Source of the DNA: Bdellovibrionales bacterium
GTDB lineage: Bacteria; Bdellovibrionota; Bdellovibrionia; Bdellovibrionales; UBA1609
DNA: 64,000 bases
Direction: 5' to 3'
Assembly (NCBI GenBank): GCA_965219095.1
Contig: OZ244719.1
Coordinates: 459,071 to 523,070 of the forward strand
Made by a program: the position numbers and the translations under genes. Below, one piece after another: positions 9,786 to 47,700 of this stretch. Under the pieces are notes generated by a model that was not told the origin of the DNA, did not search any database, and saw only the letters and a list, made by a program, of their open reading frames with translations. The number at the start of each line of letters is the position of its first letter. Position 1 is the stretch's first letter.

Positions 9786-10988
9786 TCATTTCACTTCCAA
9801 AATTTCTTTGCCTTTAAGTTTAAGAGGTGAAGCTTTGAAGCTTGTTTCTGAAAGTTGGTTTAAACTTTCTAATTCATACATCTGAGCTGTTTTTTCCGCC
9901 ATATCCGAGTTAATGAGAGCTACCACTTTCGCATACCTTTGAGTCATAGCTTGATCCTTATGTCCAAGACTTGCTTGGACAGCTGAGAGGCTCTTTGTGG
10001 CCATCAAAGCCATTGTGGCATAAGTATGACGGCAAATGTGAGTTCCTCTCCAAGGAAGTCCGCAAGCTCTAAAAGACTTATCAAAAGCCCAGCGAATGGT
10101 CGTATAAGGCACAATTCCACCTTCCATTGAATGAAAGACTAAGGGGTTTTTGGAATGTTTCTTTATGGCTTTTAACATCTCTATAAGTTTATCAGGAAGA
10201 GTAAGCACTCTAACCGAGGTCTTTGTCTTTGTTGATTCCCTAATCTGAGGAACATCTAAAGCCCAATCAGCTGTTCGAACCACTCTTGCAAACTTGTTTC
10301 TAAAATCAACTTCTTTCCACATAAGTCCACACGCTTCACTTACTCTCGCTCCTGTTAAAATCATAAACTGGGCTAAGTGGTAGTAAACAGGATTAGAGAT
10401 CTTTTCAAGCTCAGAAAGCCACTTTCTAATCTCTTCAGGTTTAGCAAAGTAATCAGGCCTTTTGATTTTTGAAGGCCTCTGATGTTGATAGCACCTGTTT
10501 CTATGTCCTTGGACAATGGGAAAGGTAAAGCTAGGATCAATGTTGTTCCTCCACCAATGAAGAACTGAGCCTAAACGTCTTAACTCCATTTTAAAAGAGT
10601 GACGTTGATTTTTGCACTTTTGCTTCTTAAAAAGCCATTCAATCCAATGATCTATACTGATGTGATGTAAGTTTGACATTCTAACTTTTGCTAAAGGACT
10701 GTTAAGTAAGAATTTTTGGCATATGTTTTGAATTTTCTTTTGACTGCTAGCTCTTAAAGAAACAACATACTCTTTAAGATATCTTTTTACACAATCTTCA
10801 AAGAAAATCTCCTCTCTTTCTTGTGGAAGAAAGTTAGTTCCATGAAAAAATCGTTGCTTTTGTTTTTCTTCCCATAGAATAGCTTCCGTCTTTGTTGGAA
10901 AAGACTTGGATTTGACACGAACTCCTCTAACATACACTTGAGCATAATAGACAGTTTTATTTTTTCCTTTTCTTTTTGTTATCGACAT
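9786..10988 (-). CDS. Tyrosine recombinase/integrase (module 1)
   Basis: GARVSEACGL (Arg), WRGTHICRHTYAT (HxxR) and TQRYAK (Tyr). Start chosen at MSITKRK behind a GGAG; the ORF track allows 11012. Confidence 0.9.
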   Translation of the reverse strand: MSITKRKGKNKTVYYAQVYVRGVRVKSKSFPTKTEAILWEEKQKQRFFHGTNFLPQEREEIFFEDCVKRYLKEYVVSLRASSQKKIQNICQKFLLNSPLAKVRMSNLHHISIDHWIEWLFKKQKCKNQRHSFKMELRRLGSVLHWWRNNIDPSFTFPIVQGHRNRCYQHQRPSKIKRPDYFAKPEEIRKWLSELEKISNPVYYHLAQFMILTGARVSEACGLMWKEVDFRNKFARVVRTADWALDVPQIRESTKTKTSVRVLTLPDKLIEMLKAIKKHSKNPLVFHSMEGGIVPYTTIRWAFDKSFRACGLPWRGTHICRHTYATMALMATKSLSAVQASLGHKDQAMTQRYAKVVALINSDMAEKTAQMYELESLNQLSETSFKASPLKLKGKEILEVK

Positions 10989-11236
10989 GATTTCTCCTTT
11001 TGTTGAAGCCATTTCTCTAACTTATCATTCGGGAAATAGACGTTTCGGCCTATTTTCAAGAAAGGGATTTTTCTCATAGACATCCAATTACGGATGGTCT
11101 TAGGAGAAATTTCCAAAAACTCCGAAAGCTCTCTAAGGTTTATTAAATTGTCAAAGAACAGGCCCTTTTTTTGAGGGCGAATAGTGTTCTCTAAGCTACT
11201 ATTTTTTTTGATTGGTTTCAATTCTTTTTTATCCAT
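10979..11236 (-). CDS. Excisionase-type HTH DNA-binding protein (module 1)
   Basis: MDKKELKPIKK...LRELSEFLEISPKTIRNWMSMRKIPFLKIGRNVYF is a MerR/excisionase-like HTH. It overlaps the integrase start. Confidence 0.7.
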   Translation of the reverse strand: MDKKELKPIKKNSSLENTIRPQKKGLFFDNLINLRELSEFLEISPKTIRNWMSMRKIPFLKIGRNVYFPNDKLEKWLQQKEKSCR

Positions 11237-11559
11237 TTTTATTTCTCCTTTTAAAATATGGCGAAGAAGCTTAAAAAGCTCCCTCATTTGGTTTCTTCTA
11301 AGAACTCTGACTTTTCCTCACTGAATATGGTGAATTTACGCACTCAAAAAAGTGTTGTAAATTTTACTTTTCTTGCTTTGCATTATGTAACTCCTTTCCT
11401 TTTCGATTTGTTATTTGTTTTTTGACCTTTTTTTTACTCCTTTCTGAGCCATTAAAAAAACTAAAGCTAAACTCAAAAAAACAAAAATTTTTTAACCTGA
11501 TAGAGAAAATTTTTAATTTAAAAGTTCTAAAAATTTTCTCTATTTTTTCCTCCTCCCAC

Positions 11560-11722
11560 ACCCCCCTTTCCTCTTCCCACATCTATACACCCAACTCTGT
11601 GGTACCGTGACCACCCTCTCCCATACTAAAAAAAGTATGAGCGGGAGAGGGTGGTCACGGTGAAAACCGAAGGTTTTAGCAGAGTTGGGTGTATAAAGAC
11701 AAAGGGAAAAGGAAAGGGGGGG
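11560..11722. repeat. Nested long palindrome (module 1 copy)
   Basis: Outer arms TATACACCCAACTCTG / CAGAGTTGGGTGTATA enclose arms CCGTGACCACCCTCTCCC / GGGAGAGGGTGGTCACGG. Inverted copy of 21367-21529. Confidence 0.8.
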
Positions 11723-11787
11723 CATGCAAGACATGTTTTCAGCACTATAAGAAAATTCCAGAATTTTTTTAAAACTACTCATAAAGC

Positions 11788-12057
11788 TCACTCCTTTAAG
11801 TTAAAAATTTGAAACAAATCTTGTGAAGTTTTGATCTTATCAATGAGTACAGCCTGACCTACTTTTAAGTTCTTAAAAACATCAGGTTCGCTCTTCATTT
11901 TTTTGGTCTCCAAAAGATTCCCTAAGCCTGTTTTTATAGCACTCCCTTGAAGAATTTGGCTTTGAGCTTTTAGGCTTACAAGGTCTTGAGATTCTTCTTC
12001 TATATTCATAAGAAGCCTTAAATTCTTTTTTTGTTTTTTGTACTGTTTAAATTTCAT
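11788..12057 (-). pseudogene. Remnant of T4CP (TraD/VirD4-like) gene, internally deleted
   Basis: DLVSLKAQSQIL and KMKSEPDVFKNLKVGQAVLIDKIKTSQDLFQIFNLKE match the middle and C-terminus of the intact 531-aa protein at 37447-39042. No ATPase motifs are left. Confidence 0.6.
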
Positions 12058-12307
12058 GTCTATATGATCTTGATTTGAAGGTGTTTTGCGTTTTTGAGTT
12101 CAAAAAATGTTCATCAGTGATAAGAGAAATGGATTTTTGAACAAAGTCTTTTGGGTTTATTTTCTTAGCATAAGAGCTTTGATGAGCTTTTTTTAAAAGA
12201 TCTTTTAGTTTTAAAAAAGTACGTTTTTCAAGAATAAGACGTGCTACTTTCTTCTTAACTTTTATGCCTTTTCTTTTTGTGTCTTTATTTAATTTATTTC
12301 TTTTCAC
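12047..12307 (-). CDS. Basic hypothetical protein (possibly a gene remnant)
   Basis: ORF only. Confidence 0.2.
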   Translation of the reverse strand: MKRNKLNKDTKRKGIKVKKKVARLILEKRTFLKLKDLLKKAHQSSYAKKINPKDFVQKSISLITDEHFLNSKTQNTFKSRSYRHEI

Positions 12308-13736: not shown

Positions 13737-14426
13737 TTATTTTTTGGAATTGGTATTACTAAAGTTTTTTGGTTTAAAGTGTTTGGCATTAATAATACTT
13801 GCACTACTTCCTAAAGCTTGAATCACAAAAAGACCTTCTTTCTCAGCCTTTCTAGCTGAACCTTGATTGGCCTTAAGATAAGCTACAGCACCATAAATTA
13901 TTTTATCTTTATACAAAGGAAGCATTTGTTTAAAGTTTTTTAATTTGTTTATAAAATGAGTCAAATCTTTTAGCCATAAGGTGGTCTTGACTTCTGTCAC
14001 AACCACTTCACTGCCATTAACTACAATAATGTCAAATTCAAAAGGCTCATCATTCCATACCCCGGAAGACTCTTGAGAAATACTCTGCACTTCAATGTTT
14101 CTTTCTTGAAGAAGTTTAACTAAATCACCTTTTACCAGAGCCTCCATAAGCTTTCCCCATTGACCTATGAAAAGTTCGTCTAACTTTGCCATACGTTTAT
14201 CAGACTTTTTAAACTGACGATCGGTCTCAAGTTTTGACTCTTTTAACAAACGCTCTGTTTCTTTGTGGGCTTTTGCGGTCTCTTGTTGAGCTTTAGAGGT
14301 TTCTTTGAGTTGGCGGTCAGTCTCTTTTTGAGCTTTTGCCAGCTCTTTAATTCCCTTAAAAGCTCCTTTAATAGATTCCTGAAGAGCTTTGGGAATCTGG
14401 TTGTTTTTTGTTACTTTTATAGCCAT
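13737..14426 (-). CDS. Coiled-coil protein with C-terminal PD-(D/E)XK (DUF3782-like) nuclease fold, paralogue 1
   Basis: KAQ(K/Q)ETDRQLKE repeats followed by GQWGKLMEALV...FEFDIIVVNGSEVVVTEVKTTL (D...E-x-K). Start taken at MAIKVTK. Confidence 0.6.
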   Translation of the reverse strand: MAIKVTKNNQIPKALQESIKGAFKGIKELAKAQKETDRQLKETSKAQQETAKAHKETERLLKESKLETDRQFKKSDKRMAKLDELFIGQWGKLMEALVKGDLVKLLQERNIEVQSISQESSGVWNDEPFEFDIIVVNGSEVVVTEVKTTLWLKDLTHFINKLKNFKQMLPLYKDKIIYGAVAYLKANQGSARKAEKEGLFVIQALGSSASIINAKHFKPKNFSNTNSKK

Positions 14427-14785
14427 ATTATTTATAGTAGTATAAAAAAACTTTCTTTTCAAGTGGTTTTAAAAAAAAAATTCTTTTAAATAGCCTCACT
14501 GCGACATCTCTCTCTAACCTACTGTAAAAACAAGAAAATAAGAAAGTGCCAGATAAAAAAGTGCCAGAAAGATGCCGCTAGAGATAATACAACAATTAAA
14601 TCCGCTTTCAAAAGTAATACAAAAGCTAAGCTCTTATAAAACTACAAGTAACTTATCACACACTTAGTTTTTTTAGAGTGAGTTCAGAGTAAAAAATTAA
14701 GGAACCTTAGAGAACTTTCAGGAAATTTTAAGATAGATAGTGACGGCTAAGTTGTTAATTTTATTATTTCCTTTTAAATTTTTTA

Positions 14786-15271
14786 ATGATTCTAAGAACT
14801 TACAAAAGTTCACAGACCATTTTTATAGGAATTCTTGCAGCATTTGCCATTCCTGCATTCGATGGGTTTAGAAAAAAAGCACGAAGCAGTGAAGCTAAAA
14901 CCAATTTAGGGGCTCTTTTTACTGCACAGAAAGCTTTTTTCTATGAACACTCAACTTATTGTGCTCATCTAGCTGATGTAGGTTTTTCTGTAACCGGAGC
15001 AGACACATATTACACCATTGGTTTTGGTGCGAACTCTGGTGGTAGTAATAGTGGTTGTACCGCAGGTACTGCACCTGACTGGAAATCAGATGGCAGTAAA
15101 GCAACTGCACAAGCTCCTGAAGCAGCTTGTGATGCTGACACAACAGATTTTACTGCTGGTGCAGTCGGTCCAAAGGATGGTACTGACCTTATAGACGTAG
15201 ATAGTAACTATCGTATGGACCAAACAAAGAAGCTTAACTCCAATAGTATTTTCGACAAAGCTGGTTGTTAA
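14786..15271 (+). CDS. Pilin cassette B: PilA-type pilin lacking the leader and processing site
   Basis: MILRTYKSSQTIF|IGILAAFAIPAFDGFRKKARSSEAKTNLGALFTAQKAFFYE... The fortuitous ATG lies upstream of the core (core starts 14825). No G|FTLIE. Confidence 0.7.
   Translation: MILRTYKSSQTIFIGILAAFAIPAFDGFRKKARSSEAKTNLGALFTAQKAFFYEHSTYCAHLADVGFSVTGADTYYTIGFGANSGGSNSGCTAGTAPDWKSDGSKATAQAPEAACDADTTDFTAGAVGPKDGTDLIDVDSNYRMDQTKKLNSNSIFDKAGC
14825..14920 (+). repeat. Conserved pilin 5' core, copy B
   Basis: Same core sequence, with one G->T change (GCAGCATTTGCC). Confidence 0.85.
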
Positions 15272-15309: not shown

Positions 15310-15336
15310 TCAAACCCCTCTCTTAAAGAGGGGTTT
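15310..15336. terminator. Bidirectional hairpin terminator between convergent cassettes B and C
   Basis: CAAACCCCTCT cttaa AGAGGGGTTTG, with A/T runs on both sides. Confidence 0.7.
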
Positions 15337-15358: not shown

Positions 15359-15847
15359 TTATTGACTCGCAATTTTTTTGTTTTGATCAATTTGCCAGTT
15401 GGAATTTGTTGAAGCCGTTTCTCCTTCAGCACAAGCTATGAACTTCTCAGGAGTTGTTGGAGTTGCTTCTTCTGTTAAGCAAGCAGCATCCAGATCCGAT
15501 GCTGATTTTTTATTAGCAGTAGTAGCAGTAGAATCATAAGCTAGTGTTCCTGAGGAGGGACAAGCAGCAGAAGCAGCACTAGTTGTACCTGCAGCCTTAA
15601 ATCCAACAGCGTAGTGGCGTGTTCCATCAGGTTCATCAAAACCTACTGCTTTAAGATTAGAACAGAAGCCGTTTTGTTCATAGAAAAAAGCTTTCTGTGC
15701 AGTAAAAAGAGCCCCTAAGTTAGTTTTAGCTTCACCGCTTCGTGCTTTTTTTCTAAACCCATCGAATGCAGGAATGGCAACTGCTGCAAGAATTCCTATA
15801 AATTGATTTGTAAACTTTTGTAAGTTTGCAGAATCACTAAAAAACAA
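15359..15847 (-). CDS. Pilin cassette C: PilA-type pilin lacking the leader and processing site
   Basis: MFFSDSANLQKFTNQF|IGILAAVAIPAFDGFRKKARSGEAKTNLGALFTAQKAFFYE... The core starts at 15799 on the minus strand. Confidence 0.7.
   Translation of the reverse strand: MFFSDSANLQKFTNQFIGILAAVAIPAFDGFRKKARSGEAKTNLGALFTAQKAFFYEQNGFCSNLKAVGFDEPDGTRHYAVGFKAAGTTSAASAACPSSGTLAYDSTATTANKKSASDLDAACLTEEATPTTPEKFIACAEGETASTNSNWQIDQNKKIASQ
15704..15799 (-). repeat. Conserved pilin 5' core, copy C
   Basis: Reverse complement of the core sequence. Confidence 0.85.
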
Positions 15848-16178
15848 AAAGAAAATAATAAATTAACCTACCCATCTATTCCCGAATGTTAAGACTTTTC
15901 CCCTACATTGAACCTAGTTGATCACGACAAAACTCCGTACAAGAACGCATATGAGAATCACGATAGTTTTGATTAAAAACAAACTTTAATTTCTTTTGTA
16001 CTTACTTTTGAAAGCCAGGATTTAATTGTTGTATTATCTCTAGCGACATCTTTCTGGTACTTTCTTATTTTCCTGTTATATTACAGTAGGTTAGAGAGAG
16101 ATGTTGCAGTGAGGCTATTTGAAAGAAATTCTCTTAAAATCACTTGAAAAGAAAGTTTTTTTATATTATTATAACCGC

Positions 16179-16994
16179 ATGTCTTTAAAAAAAACCAATC
16201 ATTCAATTCCTAAAGCTGTATGGGCTTCGATTCAAGCTGTTGCTAAAGAAACTCAAGAACTGGCAAAGTCTCAAAAAGAGAATGCCAAAGCTCAAAAAGA
16301 GACTGACCGCCAACTCAAAGAATCTCAAAAAGAAATCGCTAAAGCTCAAAAAGAGAATGCCAAAGCTCAAAAAGAGACTGATCGCCAACTCAAAGAAACC
16401 TCTAAAGCTCAAAAAGAGACTGATCGCCAACTCAAAGAATCTCAAAAAGAAACCGCAAAAGCCCACAAAGAAACAGAGCGTTTGTTAAAAGACTCAAAAC
16501 TTGAGACCGATCGTCAGTTTATAAAGTCTGATAAACGTATAGCAAAGTTAGACGAACTTTTCACAGGTCAATGGGGAAAGCTTATGGAGGCTCTGGTAAA
16601 AGGTGATTTAGTTAAACTTCTTCAAGAAAGAAACATTGAAGTGCAGAGTATTTCTCGAGAGTCTTCCGGGATATGGAATGATGAGCCTTTTGAATTCGAC
16701 ATTATTGTAGTTAATGGCAGTGAAGTGGTTGTGACAGAAGTCAAGACTACCTTATGGCTAAAAGATTTAACTCATTTTATAAACAAATTAAAAAACTTTA
16801 AACAAATGCTTCCTTTGTATAAAGATAAAATAATTTATGGTGCTGTAGCTTATCTTAAGTTCAATCAAGGTTCAGCTAGAAAGGCTGAGAAAGAAGGTCT
16901 TTTTGTGATTCGAGCTTTAGGAAGTAGTGCAAGCATTATTAATGCCAAACACTTTAAACCAAAAGTTTTTAGTAATACCAATTCCAAAAAATAA
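16179..16994 (+). CDS. Coiled-coil protein with C-terminal PD-(D/E)XK (DUF3782-like) nuclease fold, paralogue 2
   Basis: Start taken at MSLKKTNHSIPKAVW. It has more KAQKETDRQLKES repeats than paralogue 1, and the C-terminal domain is nearly identical. Confidence 0.6.
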   Translation: MSLKKTNHSIPKAVWASIQAVAKETQELAKSQKENAKAQKETDRQLKESQKEIAKAQKENAKAQKETDRQLKETSKAQKETDRQLKESQKETAKAHKETERLLKDSKLETDRQFIKSDKRIAKLDELFTGQWGKLMEALVKGDLVKLLQERNIEVQSISRESSGIWNDEPFEFDIIVVNGSEVVVTEVKTTLWLKDLTHFINKLKNFKQMLPLYKDKIIYGAVAYLKFNQGSARKAEKEGLFVIRALGSSASIINAKHFKPKVFSNTNSKK

Positions 16995-18630: not shown

Positions 18631-18712
18631 TTCTTTAATAAGAAGACAGTTTTCAAATTCATAATATAAAGTAAAGACATTGATCTGTTTTCTTTAATTT
18701 CTCTAAAAAACC

Positions 18713-37446: not shown

Positions 37447-39042
37447 ATGATTTTCTTTTTAGGGGGAGTGATTGCACATAAAGAGATTAAAAAAGCTCCT
37501 TATGCTTCTAAAAGGCTTGCGAAAAACTATAAATTTATAATTTGTATTTTTATTGGCCTTGTCATTTTAGAGACTCTTTTTTATCTACTTGTTTTAGACC
37601 TCTTGTTTTTCTGGTTAGCACAGCTTTTTGTATTTTGGATCTTTCAGGCTTTTTTACTTTTTATAACTTGTAATTTTTGGCTTAAGGATGAGAACATAAA
37701 ATCCAAAAAACGCATTACAGTGGATCATTTGGAGGGAGAAGAAGTTGATTTCAAAACTTTTGAGAAGGCTCTTGAGTCTAAAGACTCAGCTCCTATAGGA
37801 GCCAATTTTGTCAAAAAAGAGCTTGTAAGTTTACCTGTCAGTTCTAGAACAGAGCATTTACTTGTTACAGGAGCGACAGGCACAGGAAAAACAACCTTGA
37901 TGATGAATTTACTGAGGCACAGTTTTTTGCATAAACACCCTCTTGTGATCCTTGATCCTAAGGGGGAAATAAAGGACATAGAGATGATAAAATTCCTTTT
38001 TTGTGAGTTAGGAAGAAAAGAGGAAGACTTTAAGCTTTTTTCTCTTGCACAGCCTGAAAAGAGCTTGTCCTACGATCCTTTGAAGTATGGAACAAGTGAA
38101 CAAGTGAGGTCGAAACTGATGCTTGGCCTTAGTTTTACTCATGATTATTATGCTTCACAAGCCAGTCAGTATCTTTCTATCTTGCTTTCTTGTTTTGAAG
38201 CTCTAAAAAAGAAAATGAATCTTAAAGAATTAAAACAAGCCCTCAACAACTCTCACAAAGAATTTATGGAGAAAAAAGAGCTGGAAGGGATGGAAGATGA
38301 TGTAGCTTCTTTATCTCAAATTAAAAAAGAAGACCTTGCAGGATTAAAAGCTCAGGTTGAGATTTTAAACTCTAGAGAGTTTTCTCATCTTCTTTCTTCT
38401 TCAAAGTGTCAAATTGATTTAGTTGAGATTTTGGAAAAAGGTCAGGTGGCTTATTTTCAACTGAACACAAACGGATATGGTGATTTTGCAAGACGTTTAG
38501 GCAAAATGATTGTGCAAGACTTGAAAGTTATAAGCAGTCAAATTCATGCAGGACAAATAGCACCTAAGTTTAACTTTGCAGGGATATTTATTGACGAATT
38601 TGGCTCTTTTGCAACAAGAGATTTTAGCGACCTTCTTAAAATGATCAGAAGCTCTAACATAGGGGTTCATCTTTTTTGTCAAGGCTTGGCTGATTTAAAA
38701 GCTGTATCTTCTGAGTTTTCGGATCAGATTTTAGGTAACACTGCTTATAAGCTGATCTTCCGTCAAGATGTCCCTCAAGACTGTGAAACATGGTCTTCTG
38801 TTTGTGGAACTATAGAAGATAAAGCTATGACCTTTCAAGTGTCATCACAAGAGATGTTAAGCGAGTTTGAAAAAACAGGCTTAGGTTCACTTTTTAACAC
38901 CAAAAAGATGAAAGTGGATTTTGATGTTTTTAAGTCTTTAAAAAGAGGTCAAGCTCTTCTTATTGATAAACTTCAAAACAAGCAAATTTTACTTCAAGTT
39001 TACAATGCTAAAGAAAAAAAGAAGAAAGGCTTGGAGAAATGA
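37447..39042 (+). CDS. Type IV coupling protein-like ATPase (TraD/VirD4/TrwB family), the only intact copy
   Basis: N-terminal TM helices, Walker A VTGATGTGKT and Walker B-like FIDEFGSFAT. 531 aa. Confidence 0.75.
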   Translation: MIFFLGGVIAHKEIKKAPYASKRLAKNYKFIICIFIGLVILETLFYLLVLDLLFFWLAQLFVFWIFQAFLLFITCNFWLKDENIKSKKRITVDHLEGEEVDFKTFEKALESKDSAPIGANFVKKELVSLPVSSRTEHLLVTGATGTGKTTLMMNLLRHSFLHKHPLVILDPKGEIKDIEMIKFLFCELGRKEEDFKLFSLAQPEKSLSYDPLKYGTSEQVRSKLMLGLSFTHDYYASQASQYLSILLSCFEALKKKMNLKELKQALNNSHKEFMEKKELEGMEDDVASLSQIKKEDLAGLKAQVEILNSREFSHLLSSSKCQIDLVEILEKGQVAYFQLNTNGYGDFARRLGKMIVQDLKVISSQIHAGQIAPKFNFAGIFIDEFGSFATRDFSDLLKMIRSSNIGVHLFCQGLADLKAVSSEFSDQILGNTAYKLIFRQDVPQDCETWSSVCGTIEDKAMTFQVSSQEMLSEFEKTGLGSLFNTKKMKVDFDVFKSLKRGQALLIDKLQNKQILLQVYNAKEKKKKGLEK

Positions 39043-39047: not shown

Positions 39048-39282
39048 CACCCAACCCAACCACTCTTTTATAACCTATCACTACTGTGTACCTGTGGTGA
39101 CGAAAGTGAGTTAGGGTGGTCAAATCTTAAACCCTTTCAACAAGTCGTAAGAATGGGCGTAATAAGGCCCTTTGATAAGGTCTTGTTTTCATTGGGTTTA
39201 GGATTTGACCACCCTAACTCACTTTCTAATCTCTCTGGTAGATGTGGTGTGTGATGTGTGGTGTGAGTGGTTGGGTTGGGTA
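39048..39282. repeat. Nested long palindrome (module 3 version), oriT-like
   Basis: Outer arms CACCCAACCCAACCACTC (39048-39065) / GAGTGGTTGGGTTGGGT (39265-39281). Perfect 25-bp inner arms GAAAGTGAGTTAGGGTGGTCAAATC (39102-39126) / GATTTGACCACCCTAACTCACTTTC (39202-39226). Confidence 0.8.
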
Positions 39283-39734: not shown

Positions 39735-39995
39735 ATGAATAAAAAAGAATTGAAACCAATCAAGAAAAGTAGTAGTTTAGAGAACACTATTCGCCCTCAA
39801 AAAAAGGGCCTGTTCTTTGACAATTTAATAACTATTGAGGAGCTTTCAGAAAATTTAGGTTTATCTAAGAAGACTTTACAAAATTGGGTTTCTTTAAGGA
39901 AAATCCCTTATGTAAAAATAGGCCGAAAGGTTTATTTTAGGTCTTCTCGCTTACAGCAGTGGATTGAACGAAAGGAGTTCAAATCATGTCTGTAA
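39735..39995 (+). CDS. Excisionase-type HTH DNA-binding protein (module 3)
   Basis: MNKKELKPIKK...IEELSENLGLSKKTLQNWVSLRKIPYVKIGRKVYF. Confidence 0.7.
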   Translation: MNKKELKPIKKSSSLENTIRPQKKGLFFDNLITIEELSENLGLSKKTLQNWVSLRKIPYVKIGRKVYFRSSRLQQWIERKEFKSCL

Positions 39996-41188
39996 CTAAA
40001 ATTAAAAGAAAAAAAAAGAACGTCTATCAAGCTCAAGTGTATGTCAGAGGAGTGAGGCTTTCGAGTAAAGTTTTTGAAAACAAAACTCAAGCTTACATTT
40101 GGCATGATAGAGAAAAAGATCGCCTTGAAAAAGGTGAAACTATAGAAGAAAAAGAACTTAAAGAATTGCTTTTTTGCGATTGTGTAGAAAAGTACATCAA
40201 AGAGTATCTGCCTAAACTGAGAGCTTCCAGCCAGAGAAAAATCTTATTGAATCTGAAAAATCTTTCAGTTAACAGCCCCTTAAATAAAGTCAAGATGTTA
40301 GACTTAAAGGCAAAGGAGATAAGCCTTTGGATTTCTTGGTTTCAAAAGAAAACTAAGAAGTGTAGGCAAAGACAGAGTTTTAAAACAGAGTTTAGGCGAC
40401 TTGTAGCTGTTCTAAACTGGTGGAGAAATTATGTTGACCCAAATTTTGTTGTTCCTGTAGTGAAAATGCATAGAGATATTTGCTATGAGACAACTCAAAA
40501 ACTAAGACGACCTGACTACTTTGCTAGACCAGAAGAAATACAGCTTTGGCTTCAAAAGCTTCAGAAAATATCTAACCCTGTTTATTATAGACTGGCAAAG
40601 TTTATGATTTTAACAGGAGCTAGAGTGAGTGAAGCTTGTGGGCTTTTATGGAAAGAAGTTGTCTTTGAAGAAAAATTTGTACGTGTGGTAAGGACAGCTG
40701 ATTGGGGAGGTAACAAAATAACTCTCTGTGAAGACACTAAAACGAAAGCATCTAACAGGCTTTTGGTTCTTCCAGAGAGACTTGTGGAGTTGTTAAGGGT
40801 TATGAAAAGTGAGTCTCCCGAAAATCCCTTAGTCTTTCATTCAAGAGAAGGTGAAATGGTGTCTTATACAAGCATTCGCTGGGCTTTTGATAAGTCCTTT
40901 AAGGCCTGCAATCTTCCTTGGAGAGGGACTCATATTTGCCGTCATACTTATGCCACAATGGCACTTATGGCGACAAAAAGTCTTTCCGCTGTGCAAGCAA
41001 GTCTTGGGCATACAGATCAAGCTATGACTCAAAGGTATGCTAAAGCGGTAGCTTTAATAAATTCTGATATGGCAGAAAGAACGGCTAGCATGTACGAATC
41101 GAAATCACTTACAAAATCACTTACGCACCCTCAAAAGACCCTAAATGAGTCCTCATTAAGGATAAGGGAAAGTGATTCTAGCAGTTGA
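39986..41188 (+). CDS. Tyrosine recombinase/integrase (module 3)
   Basis: GARVSEACGL, WRGTHICRHTYAT and TQRYAK. More diverged in the N-terminal half than int1, int2 and int4. Confidence 0.9.
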   Translation: MSVTKIKRKKKNVYQAQVYVRGVRLSSKVFENKTQAYIWHDREKDRLEKGETIEEKELKELLFCDCVEKYIKEYLPKLRASSQRKILLNLKNLSVNSPLNKVKMLDLKAKEISLWISWFQKKTKKCRQRQSFKTEFRRLVAVLNWWRNYVDPNFVVPVVKMHRDICYETTQKLRRPDYFARPEEIQLWLQKLQKISNPVYYRLAKFMILTGARVSEACGLLWKEVVFEEKFVRVVRTADWGGNKITLCEDTKTKASNRLLVLPERLVELLRVMKSESPENPLVFHSREGEMVSYTSIRWAFDKSFKACNLPWRGTHICRHTYATMALMATKSLSAVQASLGHTDQAMTQRYAKAVALINSDMAERTASMYESKSLTKSLTHPQKTLNESSLRIRESDSSS

Positions 41189-41265: not shown

Positions 41266-41295
41266 AAAAACCCCTCCAAAAAAGGGAGGGGTTTT
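41266..41295. terminator. Hairpin terminator between int3 and cassette E
   Basis: AAAAACCCCTCC aaaaaa GGGAGGGGTTTT. Confidence 0.65.
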
Positions 41296-41314: not shown

Positions 41315-41752
41315 TTATGGTAGTACACTCAAACTTTTCTCATGATTAATTTGCCAGTTGGAATTTGTCGAATCCCCGTTTCCTTCAGCACAAGCTATGA
41401 ATTCATCACCTGCAGAGTTTAGCACACAGGTTGCCCCTATAATCTTAGCAACTACCGTAGCGGCAGTTGATGGGTGACATTTATCCGTACAAGCAGTTTC
41501 TTTAAATCCAACAGCGTAGTGGCGTGTTCCAGAAGGTTCCTCAAATCCTATATTAGCTAGGACGTCTGAATATTTATCACCTTCATAAAGGTAGGCTTTT
41601 TCTGCTGTATAAAGAGCCCCTAAGTTAGTTTTAGCTTCACTACTTCGTGCTTTTTTTCTAAACCCATCGAATGCAGGAATGGCAACTGCTGCAAGAATTC
41701 CTATAAATTGATTTGTAAACTTTTGTAAGTTTGCAGAATCACTAAAAAACAA
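41315..41752 (-). CDS. Pilin cassette E: PilA-type pilin lacking the leader and processing site
   Basis: MFFSDSANLQKFTNQF|IGILAAVAIPAFDGFRKKARSSEAKTNLGALYTAEKAYLYE... The core starts at 41704 (minus). The upstream 48 nt are identical to cassette C. Confidence 0.7.
   Translation of the reverse strand: MFFSDSANLQKFTNQFIGILAAVAIPAFDGFRKKARSSEAKTNLGALYTAEKAYLYEGDKYSDVLANIGFEEPSGTRHYAVGFKETACTDKCHPSTAATVVAKIIGATCVLNSAGDEFIACAEGNGDSTNSNWQINHEKSLSVLP
41610..41704 (-). repeat. Conserved pilin 5' core, copy E
   Basis: Reverse complement of the core sequence. Confidence 0.85.
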
Positions 41753-42094
41753 AAAGAAAATAATAAATTAACCTACCCATCTATTCCCGAATGTTAAGAC
41801 TTTTCCCCTACATTGAACCTAGTTGATCACGACAAAATTCCGTACACGGACGCATATAAAAATCACGATAGTTCTAAAACAAACTTTAATTTCTTTTGTA
41901 CTTACTTTTGAAAGCCAGGATTTAATTGTTGTATTATCTCTAGCGACATCCTTTCTGGTGCTTTTTTATCTGGTACTTTCTTATTTTCCTGTTACGTTAC
42001 AGTAGGTTAGTGAGGGATATCGCAGTGAGGCCATTTGAAAGAAATTCTCTTAAAATCACTTGAAAAGAAAGTTTTTTTATATTATTATAATTGT

Positions 42095-42847
42095 ATGTCT
42101 TTAAAAAAACTCAATCATTCAATTCCTAAAGCTGTATGGGCTTCGATTCAAGCTGTTGCTAAAGAAACTCAAGAACTAGTAAAGTCTCAAAAAGAGAATG
42201 CCAAAGCTCAAAAAGAGACTGATCGCCAACTCAAAGAATCTCAAAAAGAAATCGCTAAAGCTCAAAAAGAGACTGATCGCCAACTCAAAGAATCTCAAAA
42301 AGAAATCGCTAAAGCTCAAAAAGAAATCGCTAAAGCTCAAAAAGAGACTGATCGCCAACTCAAAGAATCTCAAAAAGATACTAATCAACGTATAGCACAA
42401 CTCAACGAACTTTTCACAGGTCAATGGGGGAAGCTTATGGAAGCCTTTGTAAAAGGTGATTTAGTTAAACTTCTTCAAGAAAGGAACATCGATGTTAATG
42501 ATATATGCTCTAATAGAGAGAAGACCTTTGAAGGTCAAAAATATGAGTTTGATATCATAGCCATTAATGGAAAAGAAACAGTAGCTGTGGAAGTAAAGAC
42601 TACTTTACGGCTGAAAGACTTAACTTATTTTTTAAAAAAGTTAAAAACCTTTAAAAAGATGTTTCCTGAATATGAAGATAAGAAAATATACGGAGCTATG
42701 GCTTTTATAAAAGTGAATGAAGGAGCTGATAGGAGAGCTGAAAAAGATGGTTTATTTGTGATTCAAGCTGTAGGAGATAGTGGAAGCATTATTAATGCCA
42801 AACACTTTAAACCAAAGATCTTTTGTAATAACAATTCCAAAAAATAA
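42095..42847 (+). CDS. Coiled-coil protein with C-terminal PD-(D/E)XK (DUF3782-like) nuclease fold, paralogue 3
   Basis: KAQKETDRQLKESQKEIA repeats followed by YEFDIIAINGKETVAVEVKTTL. The C-terminal domain is more diverged than in paralogues 1 and 2. Confidence 0.6.
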   Translation: MSLKKLNHSIPKAVWASIQAVAKETQELVKSQKENAKAQKETDRQLKESQKEIAKAQKETDRQLKESQKEIAKAQKEIAKAQKETDRQLKESQKDTNQRIAQLNELFTGQWGKLMEAFVKGDLVKLLQERNIDVNDICSNREKTFEGQKYEFDIIAINGKETVAVEVKTTLRLKDLTYFLKKLKTFKKMFPEYEDKKIYGAMAFIKVNEGADRRAEKDGLFVIQAVGDSGSIINAKHFKPKIFCNNNSKK

Positions 42848-43878: not shown

Positions 43879-44088
43879 GAGAAGAAAAGGTGCGGAATGA
43901 AAAAATAAGAATCCTGAGGGTTCCTAGAAAGACCTTTTTTAAATTAAAAGAGCAGTTAGGTAATATAAAGTAAAGATATTGATCTGTTTTCTTTAAATTT
44001 CTCTAAAAACCAAGCTATTGTTTTCATATATGCACATTTTTAAGAATCTGTTTGAAAGAAATACACACTTGAATGCTGTTTGAATGTT

Positions 44089-44180
44089 GCAGATCTGTTA
44101 CAAATTTGCATATTTGTTACAAATGTAACAGATCTGTTACAAATGTATCGGATTCAGCAAATTTGTAACAAATATGCAAC
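44089..44180. repeat. GTTACAAAT iteron/palindrome array (module 4 copy)
   Basis: Same as 20331-20460 but one 41-bp unit shorter. Confidence 0.8.
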
Positions 44181-44283: not shown

Positions 44284-45020
44284 ATGTATGAAGCAAAAAA
44301 CAAAAAAAGAGTTCTTATGAAGATAGAAGCACCTCAAAACCTTGTAAGCTTAAAAGCTCAAATCCAGACCCTTACTTCTCCAGAATTTAGAAACTCCTCT
44401 ATACATGAAGAAAAAGAAATCGATCTCCTGGATGTTATGAAAAAAAATCAAATAGCCTATTTCCAGTTGAATTTAAACAGCTATGGTTTTTTAGGTAAGA
44501 AAATCGGTAAAATTCTAGTTCAAGATCTAAAGGTTATAAGCTCTCAGATTCAATCAGGACAAGTGGATTTTAAGCCTTTACTTTTAGGGGTCTTGATTGA
44601 TGAATTTGGATCTTTTGCTACACCTGATTTTTCAGATTTTTTAAAGCAAGTAAGATCTGCTGGTACAGGAGTTCACTTATTTTGCCAAGGCTTAGCTGAT
44701 TTAAATGTTGTAAGTCAGAGTTTTAGCAATCAAGTGTTGGGAAGTGCGGCCACTAAAATCATACTTCGACAAGATGTGAAGAGGACTCTCGAAAAATGGG
44801 CTTTTACAGCTGTCACTAGGGGCACTGTAGGTAGGAGTTTTCAGGTCAGTGAACGCATTCTGGGGAACTTAAAAAAACAGGCTTAGGGAATCTTTTGGAG
44901 ACCAAAAAAATGAAGATCGAACATGATGTTTTTAAGAGCTTAAAAGTAGGTCAGGCTGTACTCATTGATAAGATCAAAACCTCACAAGATTTGTTTCAAA
45001 TTTTTAGCTTAAAGGAGTGA
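44284..45020 (+). pseudogene. Truncated/frameshifted T4CP gene (module 4, duplicate of 20565-21301)
   Basis: The 200-aa ORF is identical except for one residue (TVVTRG versus TAVTRG). Confidence 0.75.
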
Positions 45021-45570: not shown

Positions 45571-45828
45571 ATGGATAAAAAAGAATTGAAACCAATTAAA
45601 AAAGGTAGTAGTTTAGAGAACACTATTCGCCCTCAAAAAAAGGGCCTGTTCTTTGACAATTTAATAACCGTAGAGGAATTAGCCTTAGCGTTTGGGCTGT
45701 CTCCTAGAACGATTAAAAATTGGGTGAGTTTAAGACAAATCCCCTTTATTCAGTTCAGAAGAAGGACTTACTTTCTTAAAGACAGTATCCATAGATGGCT
45801 TCAACAAAAGGAGAAATCATGTCAATAA
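45571..45828 (+). CDS. Excisionase-type HTH DNA-binding protein (module 4)
   Basis: Identical to 21852-22109. Confidence 0.7.
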   Translation: MDKKELKPIKKGSSLENTIRPQKKGLFFDNLITVEELALAFGLSPRTIKNWVSLRQIPFIQFRRRTYFLKDSIHRWLQQKEKSCQ

Positions 45829-46994
45829 CCAAACGTAAAAGGAAAAATAAAATAACATATCAAGCAGAAATTTATGTAAGAGGAATTCGTCTGAAAGCAA
45901 AAAGCTTTCAAACAAAAACAGAAGCCTGTATATGGCACGATAAGGAAAAAAAACGTCTTCAAGAAGGAAGAGTTTCTCTTCAAGAAGAGTTAAGAGAACT
46001 TTTCTTTGAAGACTGTGTGAGAAGGTATCTTAAAGAGTATGTTCCTACTTTAAGAGATTCCAGTCAAAAGAAGATTCAACTTCTTTGCGAGAGGTTTTTT
46101 CTACAAAGTCCTTTAGCAAAAACAAAAATGTCAGATATAGACCATGTCAGTATTGACACTTGGATTGACTGGCTTTTTAGAAGCTTTAAAAACACTGTCA
46201 ACCGCCATTCTTTTAGAATAGAGTTAAGGCGTCTTGGCTCTGTTCTTCACTGGTGGAGAAACTACCTTGATCCAAGCTTTAGCTTTCCTATTGTTCGTGG
46301 TCATAGAAATCGGTGTTATGTGAAGAAGCGAGAATCTAAGGTGAAAAGGCCAGATTACTTTGCTAAACCTGAAGAGGTGAGGGCTTGGCTTAACGAACTT
46401 AAGAAGATTCAAAACCCTGTTTATTACCGTTTAGCTCAGTTTATGATTTTAACAGGAGCGAGAGTAAGTGAAGCTTGTGGACTTATGTGGAGTGAAATTG
46501 ATTTTAAGAATCGTTTTGCAAGAGTTGTTAGAACAGCTGACTGGTCTTCTGAAAAACCTCAAATTCTAGAAACCACAAAGACTAAGACTTCTGTAAGAGT
46601 TTTAACTCTTCCTGAAAAGCTCATAGAGCTTTTGTATGAAATGAAAGAGGAATCTAATAATCCTCTTGTGTTTTACTCTTCAGAAGGAAAAGTCGTTCCT
46701 TACACTACCATTCGTTGGGCCTTTGATAAGTCTTTTAAGACCTGCAATCTTCCTTGGAGAGGAACTCATATTTGTCGTCATACTTATGCCACAATGGCTT
46801 TAATGGCGACAAAAAGCCTCTCAGCTGTCCAAGCAAGTCTTGGGCATAAGGATCAAGCTATGACTCAAAGGTATGCAAAAGTGGTGGCTCTCATTAACTC
46901 GGATATGGCAGAAAAAACAGCTCAGATGTATGAAATGAACTCTTTAGGTTCATCTCCATCACGACAGATCACGACGTCTTTACAGACAAAATGA
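45819..46994 (+). CDS. Tyrosine recombinase/integrase (module 4)
   Basis: Protein identical to int2, with a few silent nucleotide differences. Confidence 0.9.
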   Translation: MSITKRKRKNKITYQAEIYVRGIRLKAKSFQTKTEACIWHDKEKKRLQEGRVSLQEELRELFFEDCVRRYLKEYVPTLRDSSQKKIQLLCERFFLQSPLAKTKMSDIDHVSIDTWIDWLFRSFKNTVNRHSFRIELRRLGSVLHWWRNYLDPSFSFPIVRGHRNRCYVKKRESKVKRPDYFAKPEEVRAWLNELKKIQNPVYYRLAQFMILTGARVSEACGLMWSEIDFKNRFARVVRTADWSSEKPQILETTKTKTSVRVLTLPEKLIELLYEMKEESNNPLVFYSSEGKVVPYTTIRWAFDKSFKTCNLPWRGTHICRHTYATMALMATKSLSAVQASLGHKDQAMTQRYAKVVALINSDMAEKTAQMYEMNSLGSSPSRQITTSLQTK

Positions 46995-47212
46995 ACTTTA
47001 GGATCAAAAGGATACTGGTAGTTGAATTTTAAAATTTTTTAAAATTTAAAAAAAAGAATTCTAGCAGGAACACTTGGAATGAAAAACTCACGACGGAAAT
47101 CACGACTTCTCACTAAAATAGCTAAGATATCACTCATAAAGTAGAGCGTGAAAGAAGTTCTAGCAGTGGAAAGTTTAAGAGTTTTGAAGTAAAAAAAGAC
47201 CTACTATAAATA

Positions 47213-47239
47213 AACCCCCCTTTTTCTAAAAAGGGGGTT
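47213..47239. terminator. Hairpin terminator between int4 and cassette F
   Basis: AACCCCCC tttttctaaaaa GGGGGTT. Confidence 0.6.
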
Positions 47240-47256
47240 CTAGAAAGGTTTTCAGA

Positions 47257-47700
47257 TTAAGTACAGTCAGCTCCTGCGCCATTTGATTTTAAAATTTTAA
47301 GATTATCCATCTGCCAATTTGTTCCAACACTATCAAGCTTATTGCTTGTGTGATTTCCAAAAGCTCCAGCTTTGAAGGTTGTAGTTGTGTGTTCACATGC
47401 AGGTCCAGGAGCCCTTTTAGTGCCGGTAGCATGAGTAGAGTCGTGTTTTGCAGCAGCAGCCGCTGTTGCTGGGCATGTTCCCACTACAGCACTCGCCTTA
47501 AATCCGATAGAAAAATATTGCGTTCCCTCGGGTTTTCCAAAACCTATCAAATCCAAGTTATTACAATAATCGCCTTGTTCATAAAAGTACGCTTTTTCTG
47601 CTGTATAAAGAGCCCCTAAGTTAGTTTTAGCTTCACCGTCTCGTGCTTTTTTTCTAAACCCATCGAATGCAGGAATGGCAACTGCTGCAAGAATTCCTAT
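47257..47700 (-). pseudogene. Pilin cassette F: 5'-truncated PilA-type pilin, no start codon
   Basis: The minus frame reads ...LF|IGILAAVAIPAFDGFRKKARDGEAKTNLGALYTAEKAYFYEQGDYCNNLDLIGFGKPEGTQYF... An in-frame TGA lies 8 codons upstream of the core and no ATG precedes it. Confidence 0.8.
47606..47700 (-). repeat. Conserved pilin 5' core, copy F
   Basis: Reverse complement of the core. The sequence beyond 47700 is an unrelated IS fragment. Confidence 0.85.

Follow-up and report, generated by a model that had tools for sequence, protein, structure and literature searches.

Truncated type IV pilin genes at the putative attachment sites of candidate integrative elements in a Bdellovibrionales genome

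Results

Six truncated pilin cassettes share a core

The 64,000-nucleotide stretch of Bdellovibrionales DNA analysed here (the window; contig OZ244719.1, positions 459,071 to 523,070) contains six 5′-truncated type IV pilin cassettes, designated A to F. All six have in common a near-invariant core of ~130 bp.

9214–9636, plus strand: cassette A; core (from 9214) and C-terminal half, open frame of 140 codons without a leader
14823–15271, plus strand: cassette B, terminal (attR-like); core from 14823, upstream arm present, no integrase gene downstream
15359–15801, minus strand: cassette C, terminal (attR-like); core from 15801, upstream (P) arm, no integrase gene
23536–23966, minus strand: cassette D, internal junction; core from 23966
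41315–41706, minus strand: cassette E, internal junction; core from 41706
47257–47702, minus strand: cassette F, head of the minus-strand array; core from 47702, upstream flank of interior IS sequence with no P arm and no pilin 5′ end

Alignment of the cassettes revealed a sharp 5′ boundary at TTATAGGAATTC in 6/6, followed by ~130 near-invariant bases. A 38-nt core probe has exactly six matches in the window with at most one mismatch, where none is expected by chance. Pfam profile tests covered cassettes B, C, and E, the integrases int1 and int3, xis1, and a 531-amino acid coupling protein; the three cassettes matched Pilin_PilA/Pilin_GH. The cassette profile alignment to a solved PilA begins at residue 12. 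None of the six window cassettes has a prepilin leader, and no full-length pilin was found in the window. The coding frame of the cassettes is under purifying selection, with no in-frame stops (vs 6–18 in the other frames) and a dN/dS between contigs of 0.1–0.2 over the first 45 codons, where dS is saturated. Within the genome, dS is 0.11–0.45 in the first 45 codons, which span the core, versus 0.5–2.5 in the remainder. The tails are mosaic in that the coding end of A resembles C and its post-stop region resembles E. Cassettes A and D share arm and core but not tails, and the same holds for C and E. Cassettes B and C form a tail-to-tail pair with inverted cores that are 97% identical.

Each integrase gene faces a cassette

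The window encodes four xis/int pairs, every one of which converges on a cassette. These pairs and the genes that accompany them are as follows.

9786–11236, minus strand: int1 (408-amino acid tyrosine recombinase) and xis1 (HTH_17), facing A
11540–12057, minus strand: coupling protein (T4CP) gene remnant of module 1, with homology to 21151–21671 and 38871–38979
13737–14462, minus strand: distal end of module 1, divergent gene for a coiled-coil protein with weak PD-(D/E)XK likeness
16119–16994, plus strand: distal end of module 2, divergent gene for a nuclease-like coiled-coil protein
18712–20237, plus strand: putative IS66-type insertion inside module 2 with transposase-like ORFs; inverted partial copy at 48267–48793
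20325–20427: palindromic 20-nt unit (AATGTTGCAGATCTGTTACA) repeated about five times; second array at 44083–44146
20565–21167, plus strand: truncated T4CP gene of module 2 (200 amino acids); twin at 44284–44886
21852–23275, plus strand: xis2 and int2 (399 amino acids), facing D
27927–35837: module 3 cargo, comprising unknown genes, a pentapeptide-repeat protein, and a multiubiquitin/E2/JAB-E1/DUF6527 cluster
37447–39042, plus strand: full-length T4CP of module 3 (531 amino acids)
39102–39226: imperfect palindrome between the T4CP gene and xis3, conserved in contig L007 too
39735–41188, plus strand: xis3 and int3 (400 amino acids), facing E
42035–42847, plus strand: distal end of module 4, divergent gene for a nuclease-like coiled-coil protein
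45571–46994, plus strand: xis4 and int4, facing F; the amino acid sequence of int4 equals that of int2

An earlier, sequence-only reading had the four pairs end 126–262 bp from the 3′ ends of A, D, E, and F. The ORF coordinates agree, giving gaps from int stop to cassette stop of 149 bp (A), 260 bp (D), 126 bp (E), and 262 bp (F). Int1 and int3 matched Phage_integrase and xis1 matched HTH_17, while int2, int4, and xis2–4 were identified by alignment to these proteins. The 531-amino acid coupling protein matched TraG-D_C/TrwB. IS66-family Pfam matches came only from separate ORFs at 59262–60270, not from the copy at 18712–20237. The same reading had placed a ~0.4-kb spacer and a divergent DUF3782-like nuclease gene 5′ of B, C, and E. 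The spacer (316–360 bp) and the divergent gene are present; DUF3782 was not detected by Pfam in this gene, which is weakly nuclease-like (Hjc, E = 0.011; NERD, E = 0.16). That the 39102–39226 palindrome might serve as oriT is only a guess. Neither a relaxase nor VirB4 is present in the window elements and the T4CP gene is truncated in three of the four, so their current mobility is doubtful.

Arm-type repeats on both sides of the cassettes

Paired GTGAT repeats of arm type, as well as terminator-like hairpins, were located around the cassettes.

9050–9213, plus strand: alpha-type upstream (P) arm of A, ~90% identical to that of D; paired GTGAT at 9070–9085
9655–9681, plus strand: terminator-like hairpin after A; int-side paired GTGAT 55 nt on, at 9737–9753
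15315–15333: single hairpin common to the tail-to-tail B and C
23338–23446, minus strand: int-side arm of module 2; paired GTGAT/GTGAG at 23367–23383, CTGCTAGAAY at 23338–23347 and 23437–23446
23480–23511, minus strand: terminator-like hairpin after D
23967–24134, minus strand: alpha-type upstream arm of D; paired GTGAT at 24095–24110
25227–25354, minus strand: relic third alpha arm, ending ~40 nt short of the expected core position
41267–41295, minus strand: terminator-like hairpin after E
47058–47166, minus strand: int-side arm of module 4; paired repeat at 47087–47103, CTGCTAGAAY at 47058–47067 and 47157–47166
47212–47240, minus strand: terminator-like hairpin after F

Upstream of the core, paired repeats lie at a distance of 116–128 nt in the arms of A, D, L007a, L007b, and L009a; in A, GTGAT-N6-GTGAT lies 128 nt ahead. 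On the int side, GTGAT-type pairs are found in all pilin-type integrase arms examined except L007b, for which the 116-nt spacer alone was scanned. They lie 55–146 nt from the terminator, and the 3′ end of int3 itself contains such a pair (41104–41120). Paired-repeat counts in the window were 8 and 10 versus ~2 expected by chance, with some matches outside att regions. Because the repeats occur upstream of the core and again beside int, the pilin fragment lies inside an attP-like site. The alpha-type P arm upstream of A implies a further element to its left.

The same integrase clade faces pilin cassettes on unrelated contigs

We compared the window with four unrelated metagenome contigs (L002, L007, L008, and L009). 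Integrases of the same clade on these contigs converge on a pilin cassette in 5/5 cases, and the pilin-facing integrases of window and contigs form one monophyletic clade of 58–99% identity. In the five cassettes that are fully visible on the metagenome contigs, the truncation point falls at most a few bases from one shared codon (I-I-G-I/V-L-A-A). Across window and contigs, 11 fully visible cassettes start within a few bases of that codon, and their upstream sequences differ. Contigs L002 and L008 also carry type IV secretion genes. The outgroup integrases (44–53% identity) converge on tRNA-Ile, tRNA-Ala, and tRNA-Ser in the same orientation and with the same paired GTGAT-type arm repeats, which lie 57–58 nt from the tRNA 3′ end. 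Since the clade always sits beside a headless but intact pilin fragment and its nearest relatives insert into tRNA genes, these arrangements suggest a pilin gene as the insertion target of its elements, with replacement of the gene's tail.

Junction types and homology breaks

The junctions are of three types: heads without a P arm (F and L009b), internal junctions with P arm and int (A, D, E, L007b, and L009a), and termini with a P arm and no int (B and C, served by a common terminator in the manner of a convergent pair of chromosomal genes). These types fit those expected from tandem integration at the core. No pilin 5′ end is present at either clear head, F abutting interior IS sequence; the L008 flank also lacks one and might represent an element arm, not a head. 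These absences and the ambiguous L008 flank leave the re-tailing of expressed pilins as an inference. The protein database yielded no full-length pilin of the source genome that has this core. The contig that carries L009 (611 kb) also encodes a full-length prepilin, P0152, whose core differs from that of L009a at 3 of the first 41 residues, making it a possible target.

In our alignment of window and contigs, homology between elements breaks at the core 5′ edge; L008 and L009b, for example, share 97.8% identity from xis across the whole cassette up to that edge, where homology ends. A break elsewhere remains a caveat. Modules 2 and 4, described earlier as near-identical with different cassettes, are indeed 98.3% identical over 20247–23500/44005–47214, yet tails D and F are unrelated. 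The break, previously put near 23458/47178, is located at ~23459/47178, ~30 nt beyond the terminator and at a distance of 13 nt from a CTGCTAGAAC motif; the CTGCWAGAAY motif adjoins it. The transition is graded, with ~15 nt of partial similarity, and the position fits a second recombination site. A T-rich ...CAAAA..CC motif is loosely conserved 3′ of the terminators.

Discussion

Our best reading is that the window represents integrative conjugative or mobilizable elements in tandem arrays that have decayed and are riddled with ISs. That such elements recombine at the pilin core, each bringing its own pilin C-terminal half, is in our judgment somewhat probable. The region would consist of two converging tandem arrays in a Bdellovibrionota-like genome, with the attachment site of each element centred on a type IV pilin fragment that is in frame but has neither promoter nor leader. 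In circular form, an element would run from a distal arm with paired GTGAT integrase arm sites through a 116–128-nt spacer to the core (codons I-I-G-I-L-A-A-V-A-I-P..., from about residue 12 of the mature pilin), followed by the variable C-terminal half, a terminator, further paired GTGAT arm sites, int, and xis. The tyrosine integrase would recombine the core 5′ edge (around TTAT[A/C]GG) with that conserved segment in either a pilin gene or a cassette remaining from a previous integration. The incoming tail would be placed behind the resident 5′ end and the previous tail pushed to the far end of the element, so that repeated integration would yield arrays of the form core-tail-int...arm-core-tail.

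Repeated site-specific integration into a pilin core had been proposed in the earlier reading. It gains from the clade-wide pairing, the tRNA-facing outgroups, the arm repeats, the core-edge breaks, and the junction types; its re-tailing step lacks the pilin 5′ end at heads F and L009b. We place the crossover, tentatively, within the core. Against this placement, it puts the int-side arm repeats at least ~500 nt away, compared with at most ~135 nt in the tRNA relatives. Also against it, the 130-bp identity of the window cores goes far beyond the requirement of a tyrosine recombinase and would serve homologous recombination as well.

Alternatively, the att site could lie just 3′ of the cassette terminator, at the 23459/47178 break beside CTGCTAGAAC; an element would then bear a whole truncated cassette at its distal end, and the cassette next to int would belong to the target. 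The exact position of the break between 98%-identical modules, the two motifs found there and after terminators, and int-side GTGAT pairs that lie much nearer the terminator than the core, much as in the tRNA relatives, speak for this unlikely arrangement. However, an element crossing over there needs no pilin fragment, the upstream repeats are spaced from the core edge, away from the terminator, and L008 and L009b share int and cassette up to that edge and diverge beyond it. This arrangement would also require heads F and L009b to be chromosomal genes coincidentally cut within a few bases of where element-borne cassettes are cut. Moreover, the single hairpin of B and C means that they cannot both be element ends with separate att sites, and homologous exchange can explain a D/F break that grades over ~15 nt.

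Exchange of that kind is central to a pilS-like silent reservoir, in which RecA-dependent gene conversion would feed an expression locus, with homology supplied by the 130-bp core together with the conserved 3′ end and terminator, and with the integrases merely neighbours in an island-rich region. Promoterless, truncated cassettes that are open in frame, a core homogenised within the genome, mosaic tails, and the D/F swap are all compatible with this account, which we nevertheless regard as quite improbable: it leaves aside the one-to-one convergent pairing with integrases across the clade (five sequences), the arm-type repeats that bracket each cassette, and sister integrases that target tRNA genes. 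No expression locus was found in the window or among source-genome proteins in the database, and the two cores of L007, like those of L009, are only 78–80% identical and a poor substrate for homologous exchange. Very unlikely, in our view, is shufflon-like switching in one replicon, whereby the integrases would invert or delete DNA between cores and swap tails behind a fixed 5′ pilin segment outside the window. Cassettes in both orientations, the B/C pair with its inverted cores, and adjacent tyrosine recombinases recall such a system, but no constant 5′ segment appears in the window or among source-genome protein matches. An HTH_17 excisionase-type gene with each int, a T4CP gene, and the type IV secretion genes of L002 and L008 are mobile-element anatomy, and the same module recurs in different genomic contexts.

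Elements recombining at the pilin core would share features with several known systems. In the R64 shufflon, the tyrosine recombinase Rci rearranges pilV C-terminal segments. Like the proposed elements, the shufflon combines a tyrosine recombinase with alternative C-terminal segments of a pilin, sites of recombination in conserved coding sequence, and tail-to-tail segment pairs (compare B/C); it differs in being a fixed cluster that inverts behind a single constant 5′ part of pilV, with no known excisionase and no one-to-one match of segments to separate integrases on separate mobile elements. Pilin variation also arises by Piv inversion in Moraxella and pilE/pilS antigenic variation in Neisseria, Piv being a DEDD-type invertase and pilS conversion RecA-dependent. 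These systems likewise use promoterless 5′-truncated copies whose 5′ segment matches the expressed gene and whose C-terminal parts vary, but they are not known to be carried on integrative conjugative elements or bracketed by integrase arm sites.

Phage 21 and e14 in icd and SXT in prfC integrate in coding genes and replace the cut end. Islands specific for dusA do the same in another protein-coding gene (PMC4482086). Other genomic islands and ICEs integrate into the 3′ part of tRNA or tmRNA genes, for which they bring a substitute 3′ end (Islander, PMC4383910). The present elements resemble these islands in having a tyrosine integrase and arm-type repeats at the end facing the target's 3′ end, a carried 3′ fragment of the target, ends marked by displaced fragments, tandem arrays, and nearest outgroup integrases that face tRNA-Ile, tRNA-Ala, and tRNA-Ser. 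They differ in that the fragment is protein-coding and ~420–450 bp long (as much as ~500 bp on the metagenome contigs) rather than at most 76 nt of tRNA, that copies match over only the first 36–130 bp and are highly variable thereafter, and that no regenerated full-length target was seen. As with dusA, icd, and prfC, integration would occur inside a coding gene and supply an in-frame substitute for the displaced end. Those substitutes keep the protein essentially the same, whereas here each would provide a different surface-exposed C-terminal domain, with alternatives accumulating in arrays. The natural target would be an expressed full-length pilin, and integration would alter the pilus.

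The cassettes are headless but intact pilin gene fragments

Alignment of the six 5'-truncated pilin cassettes in the window (A and B on the plus strand; C, D, E, and F on the minus strand) together with their flanks revealed a common start of match at TTATAGGAATTC. This start is followed by ~130 bp of almost invariant sequence, designated the core, and then by strong divergence. A 38-nt repeat probe (≤1 mismatch) detected six copies in the window, which has a G+C content of ~33%, compared with none expected by chance. Read in frame, each cassette begins (I/F)IGILAAVAIPAFDGFRKKAR... and reaches a stop codon 130–149 codons on. Internal in-frame stops are absent from all six, and the other two frames contain 6–9 and 16–18 stops. 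Pfam places the cassettes tested (B, C, and E) in Pilin_PilA/Pilin_GH, and a cassette profile matches the solved type IV major pilin PilA (8tj2) from residue 12 with an E value of 4e-21. The encoded sequence has the body of a type IVa pilin, in which a hydrophobic α1 helix precedes a globular domain with a C-terminal cysteine pair; cysteine pairs are seen in the cassette alignment. A prepilin leader with the G(-1), F(+1), E(+5) N_methyl motif was found neither in any cassette nor anywhere else in the window, and the 5' side of every copy consists of stop codons or unrelated sequence. The full-length relatives P0005 and P0152, both database proteins, carry the leader. Because their frames are open and match pilins, with no leader in the window, the cassettes are pilin gene fragments that are headless yet intact.

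Comparison of cassettes between contigs showed that dS is saturated and dN/dS is 0.1–0.2 over the first 45 codons, versus 0.3–0.8 over the remainder. Evolution of the fragments has been that of coding sequence. Inside the window, these 45 codons, which span the core, are homogenised (dS of 0.11–0.45 versus 0.5–2.5 in the rest). Terminator-like hairpins are located 3' of A, D, E, and F, whereas B and C lie tail to tail with one common hairpin at 15315–15333. The cassette family is rare in the protein database. One cassette-like protein, P0154 from a 43,300-bp contig, starts with MVVVAIIGVLAA, five codons upstream of the usual boundary; either the truncation point is not absolutely fixed, or P0154 is a full-length gene with a damaged start. 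In A and D, the antisense strand of the core contains a consensus match, and only that, to a sigma-70-like promoter (ATGGCA-17-TATAAT) pointing into the upstream arm.

Sigma-70-like consensus matches
9213–9241, minus strand, cassette A
23939–23967, plus strand, cassette D

Each integrase in the window faces a cassette

Each of the four modules contains an integrase gene (int1 to int4) preceded by an overlapping excisionase-type gene (xis1 to xis4). Pfam identifies int1 and int3 as PF00589 tyrosine recombinases (E ~1e-20), and int2 and int4 align with them with the catalytic residues invariant. R213, H316, R319, H342, and Y351 are conserved without exception across six aligned integrases, int2 included, and the PDB profile matches are Tn1549 Int, XerD, and HP1 integrase. 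HTH_17 was detected in xis1, with which the other three xis genes align closely. The sequence-only reading had proposed that every integrase converges on a cassette. This is borne out: int1, int2, int3, and int4 face A, D, E, and F, respectively, and each ends 126–262 bp from the stop codon of the opposite-strand cassette. The spacer and divergent gene that it placed 5' of cassettes B, C, and E are also present, with a spacer of 316–360 bp. Its name for that gene, DUF3782-like nuclease, fared less well, since Pfam did not detect DUF3782 and the C-terminal domain gives just weak hints of a nuclease (Hjc, E = 0.011). The divergent genes encode a coiled-coil repeat region in addition to this C-terminal domain. 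Those at 16183–16514 and 42099–42442 contain 21-nt and multiple-of-21-nt repeats (KETDRQLKESQKEIAKAQ...) in variable number between modules; these are coding repeats, not iterons.

Genes for the coupling protein (T4CP) are full-length in module 3, reduced to 200-aa fragments in modules 2 and 4, and present as smaller remnants in module 1. Testing of window ORFs turned up neither a relaxase nor VirB4. The truncated T4CP genes are preceded by tandem arrays of a 20-nt self-palindromic unit, TGTAACAGATCTGTTACA, at 20325–20427 and 44083–44146, which could be a binding site for a regulator or relaxosome. Modules 2 and 4 had been described as near-identical despite their different cassettes, and we measured 98.3% identity up to ~23459/47178. 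The identity ends ~30 nt past the cassette terminators, beyond which the 3' halves of D and F are unrelated. The break passes through ~15 nt of partial similarity and is 13 nt from a CTGCTAGAAC motif.

Several units are broken up or bordered by IS copies, and housekeeping genes start ~2.4 kb right of F. Several IS fragments right of F are inverted copies of ISs in the array. The cluster at 32994–35837 is a ubiquitin-like conjugation module of a kind linked to phage defence.

Cargo and surroundings
370–8621, left of A: SNF2-helicase/PLD nuclease (1091 aa), Eco57I/MmeI-type methylase (1146 aa), and ClpP-like SDH protease
31927–32997: pentapeptide-repeat protein, ahead of the ubiquitin-like cluster
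32994–35837: multiubiquitin, prokaryotic E2, JAB-E1 (ThiF) fusion, and DUF6527
26350–27731 and 56393–57785: example of an array IS and its inverted copy
47739–50000 and 54747–60874, between F and the housekeeping genes: dense ISL3-, IS66-, DDE_3-, DDE_Tnp_1-, and DDE_5-type fragments

The same arrangement occurs on other contigs

A search with the integrases identified close relatives on four ENA metagenome contigs.

Loci with close integrase relatives
L002: integrase 99% identical to int3; pilin 3' half downstream, within which the contig ends
L007: integrase 78% identical to int3; two cassettes (L007a and L007b) either side of a 5.5-kb integrase element
L008: integrase 63% identical to int3; one cassette downstream
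L009: two integrases, 58% and 63% identical to int3, each with its own cassette (L009a and L009b)

All fully visible cassettes on these contigs (5/5) are cut within a few bases of the codon used in the window and are open to the stop. The eight distinct integrases of the window and the four contigs form one clade, and every integrase copy (9/9) adjoins and faces the 3' end of a carried pilin fragment. The source genome contains further cassettes (P0002 and P0004) and int3-like copies (P0029 and P0030). Among these loci, L002 has xis, type IV secretion genes, a VirB4-like P-loop_TraG gene, and a T4CP gene; L008 has TrbI and T4CP; and L009b has Replic_Relax. The element on L009 also encodes an SDH protease near a reverse transcriptase (1178–4470).

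Scans of viral and JGI metagenome contigs with the pilin and integrase alignments found nothing. A scan of GTDB genomes returned four loci, namely L003 and L005, which have distant integrases, L004, and an unrelated Pseudomonas match. The contigs of L004 and L012 end at the integrase, and L010 (integrase 52% identical) has neither a tRNA gene nor a pilin downstream. A full-length pilin of the same subfamily, P0005, is encoded on L001 (ena:ERZ25070844:ctg7083_1x_c), a 15,985-bp contig with 1x coverage that is flagged circular and comprises three tandem 5.28-kb units. Each unit contains P0005, a DDE_3 transposase, a 2OG-Fe(II) oxygenase, and two unknown genes; the contig may stem from a small circle that was read as a concatemer.

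Cassettes are flanked by repeats shared with tRNA-targeting integrases

Outgroup integrases with 44–53% identity converge on tRNA genes.

tRNA genes faced by outgroup integrases
L003: tRNA-Ile, 134 bp downstream of the integrase
L005: tRNA-Ala, 101 bp downstream of the integrase
L011: tRNA-Ser, faced by the integrase

An integrase facing a tRNA gene is the textbook layout of islands that regenerate their tRNA target (PMC4383910). In these tRNA relatives, two GTGAT-type repeats spaced by one helical turn form a pair located 57–58 nt from the 3' end of the tRNA. A search of 10 kb of L003 for a distal tRNA fragment, which would calibrate the distance between P arm and crossover, found none. On the chromosomal side of the L003 tRNA-Ile, two partial copies of the tRNA 5' part flank a HigB/HigA-like toxin-antitoxin pair (features at 11313–11338, 11482–11500, and 12198–12223).

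The same paired GTGAT repeat is located in the integrase-side arms of A, D, F, E/L002, L008, L009a, and L009b; it was not found in the short spacer of L007b. The distance from this pair to the terminator is 55 nt in A and 88–146 nt in the others. A, D, L007a, L007b, and L009a have a second GTGAT pair in the arm that precedes the core, 116–128 nt from the core edge, and the arms of C, E, and B contain degenerate versions of it. By homology, the arms upstream of the core are of type alpha (A and D) or beta (C and E, with B related), and they are ~70% conserved on L007 and L009. We interpret the GTGAT pairs that flank cassettes as putative arm-type integrase repeats like those of lambda/P4-like heterobivalent integrases. 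With GTGAT pairs on both sides, the pilin fragment lies between two arm regions, where the tRNA relatives have the tRNA 3' fragment. In int3 and its twin in L002, a paired GTGAT repeat falls inside the 3' end of the integrase frame, which has a C-terminal extension (window 41104–41120; L002 11119–11135). The spacer between int3 and its cassette is shorter in the window than in L002.

The motif near the D/F break, the 10-mer CTGCWAGAAY, has 11 exact matches in the window versus 0.65 expected. Every match falls either within one of the six cores, where it is antisense to the pilin, or within the integrase-side arm of D, E, or F, where it is in the sense orientation. The arms of L002, L007, L008, and L009 contain variants.

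CTGCWAGAAY matches in the window
9222–9231
14831–14840
15784–15793
23338–23347
23437–23446
23949–23958
41175–41184
41689–41698
47058–47067
47157–47166
47685–47694

The 10-mer may be a protein-binding site at both ends of the cassette, and its restriction to cores and integrase-side arms suggests that both cassette ends may be recombinogenic. In the upstream flank of L008, three oppositely oriented arm-type repeats are located between -265 and -290 nt, and this flank may be an element arm instead of a target flank. A relic alpha arm at 25227–25354 shows that module 3 contains further decayed units. The region at 30.8–31.3 kb was considered as a further att arm and dropped, having just a 63-bp piece in common; inverted core-type half-sites around the boundary, read by eye, were not convincing.

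Homology breaks at the 5' edge of the core

L008 and L009b are 97.8% identical from 140 bp upstream of xis through the integrase, the arm, and the whole cassette, and they diverge at the 5' edge of the core. Arm and core are common to A and D, whereas their tails differ; the same holds for C and E. P0002 and P0004 have beta-type upstream sequence together with still further tails, and the sequence that meets F at this boundary comes from inside an IS transposase gene. The crossover could not be positioned from core polymorphisms in the window, since B alone varies within the first 57 bp. On L007 and L009, the two cores of each array are just 78–80% identical over 130 bp and match best over approximately the first 36 bp; the stretch that has to be shared is therefore short and located at the core's 5' end.

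Direct core repeats bound each module (F/E, E/D, D/C, A/B, L007b/a, and L009b/a). The junctions sort into three types, as predicted by tandem integration.

Junction types
Head (F, L009b): no upstream P arm; integrase downstream
Internal (A, D, E, L007b, L009a): upstream P arm; integrase downstream
Terminal (B, C): upstream P arm; no integrase downstream

B and C resemble tails displaced from a convergent pair of chromosomal pilin genes with a common terminator. A and L007b are preceded by the arm of another element. An alpha arm precedes A, which implies that another element lies to the left of A; the cargo of that element would include the restriction and protease genes at 370–8621.

Proposed integration at the pilin core and its alternatives

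The simplest account, which makes the sequence-only reading more specific, is that integrative conjugative or mobilizable elements recombine at the pilin core; we judge this somewhat likelier to be right than wrong. The attP of such elements would contain the truncated pilin gene, crossover would take place at or near the 5' edge of the core, with TTAT[A/C]GG as the predicted overlap, and repeated integration would build the arrays. That integration gives an expressed pilin a new tail, the functional claim, is more tentative, and we lean slightly against it. A regenerated expressed gene was not seen here, since the heads F and L009b and the ambiguous flank of L008 have no pilin 5' end at the integrase-proximal junction. 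The protein database contains no full-length pilin with this core from the source genome. P0152, the sole full-length gene linked to cassettes, shares a 611-kb contig (ena:ERZ25070786:ctg150159l) with L009; compared with the L009a core, the core of P0152 has 3 differences in its first 41 residues.

For D and F to have been swapped on identical backbones, a further exchange is required immediately beyond the terminator, and an attachment site at that position would account both for the swap and for the short distance to the integrase-side arm repeats. Crossover in the core places those repeats at least ~500 nt away, far more than in the tRNA relatives. However, a post-terminator site leaves unexplained why the elements carry a truncated pilin, why L008 and L009b break where they do, why head cassettes have a common truncation point, and why B and C have a single hairpin. 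The open frames and mosaicism would also fit a pilS-like reservoir, truncated open copies are present in the window, and the 130-bp core identity there would equally permit homologous exchange. Such a reservoir gives no account of the arm repeats or of the one-to-one pairing with integrases across the clade. An expression locus was not found for the source genome in the protein database, and one full-length gene is present on the L009 contig. Inverted cores flank B/C, as in a shufflon-like switch, but the constant 5' part was found neither in the window nor among the proteins of the source genome, and this explanation disregards the mobile-element genes.

Discussion

Phage 21 and e14 integrate into the coding gene icd and replace its cut end. 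The mechanism proposed for the pilin-associated elements would be similar, as it would be to that of tRNA-targeting islands (PMC4383910) and of dusA islands, which replace the cut end of a coding gene (PMC4482086). The target differs from those of the tRNA, dusA, and icd systems, and the replacement here is a long, highly variable, surface-exposed domain. Likeness to the R64 shufflon, Moraxella Piv inversion, and Neisseria pilS is confined to the outcome. No description of pilin-targeting integrative elements was found in the searchable literature.

On a more far-reaching reading, one integrase lineage gave up tRNA genes for the best-conserved part of the major type IV pilin gene. Each conjugative or mobilizable element would bring a different in-frame pilin C-terminal domain, and the arrays would be reusable archives of displaced pilin tails. 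We regard this switch of lineage, with conversion of the host's pilus type on acquisition of an element, as possible but rather less than an even prospect. It would be a natural case in which the target of an integrase clade has shifted from tRNA genes to a coding sequence, which is relevant to integrase bioprospecting. If correct, the model would extend the strategy of integrating into a gene and restoring it to one in which the repair is not neutral but rewrites a major surface structure. Phages use type IV pili as receptors, and Bdellovibrio-like predators need these pili to enter their prey. Uptake of an element would then amount to pilus serotype conversion by integration, and phage receptors, predation, or adhesion could be affected. 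Elements that swap the exposed half of a pilin could drive pilus diversity and the horizontal spread of pilin alleles, and could also account for arrays of silent pilin copies.
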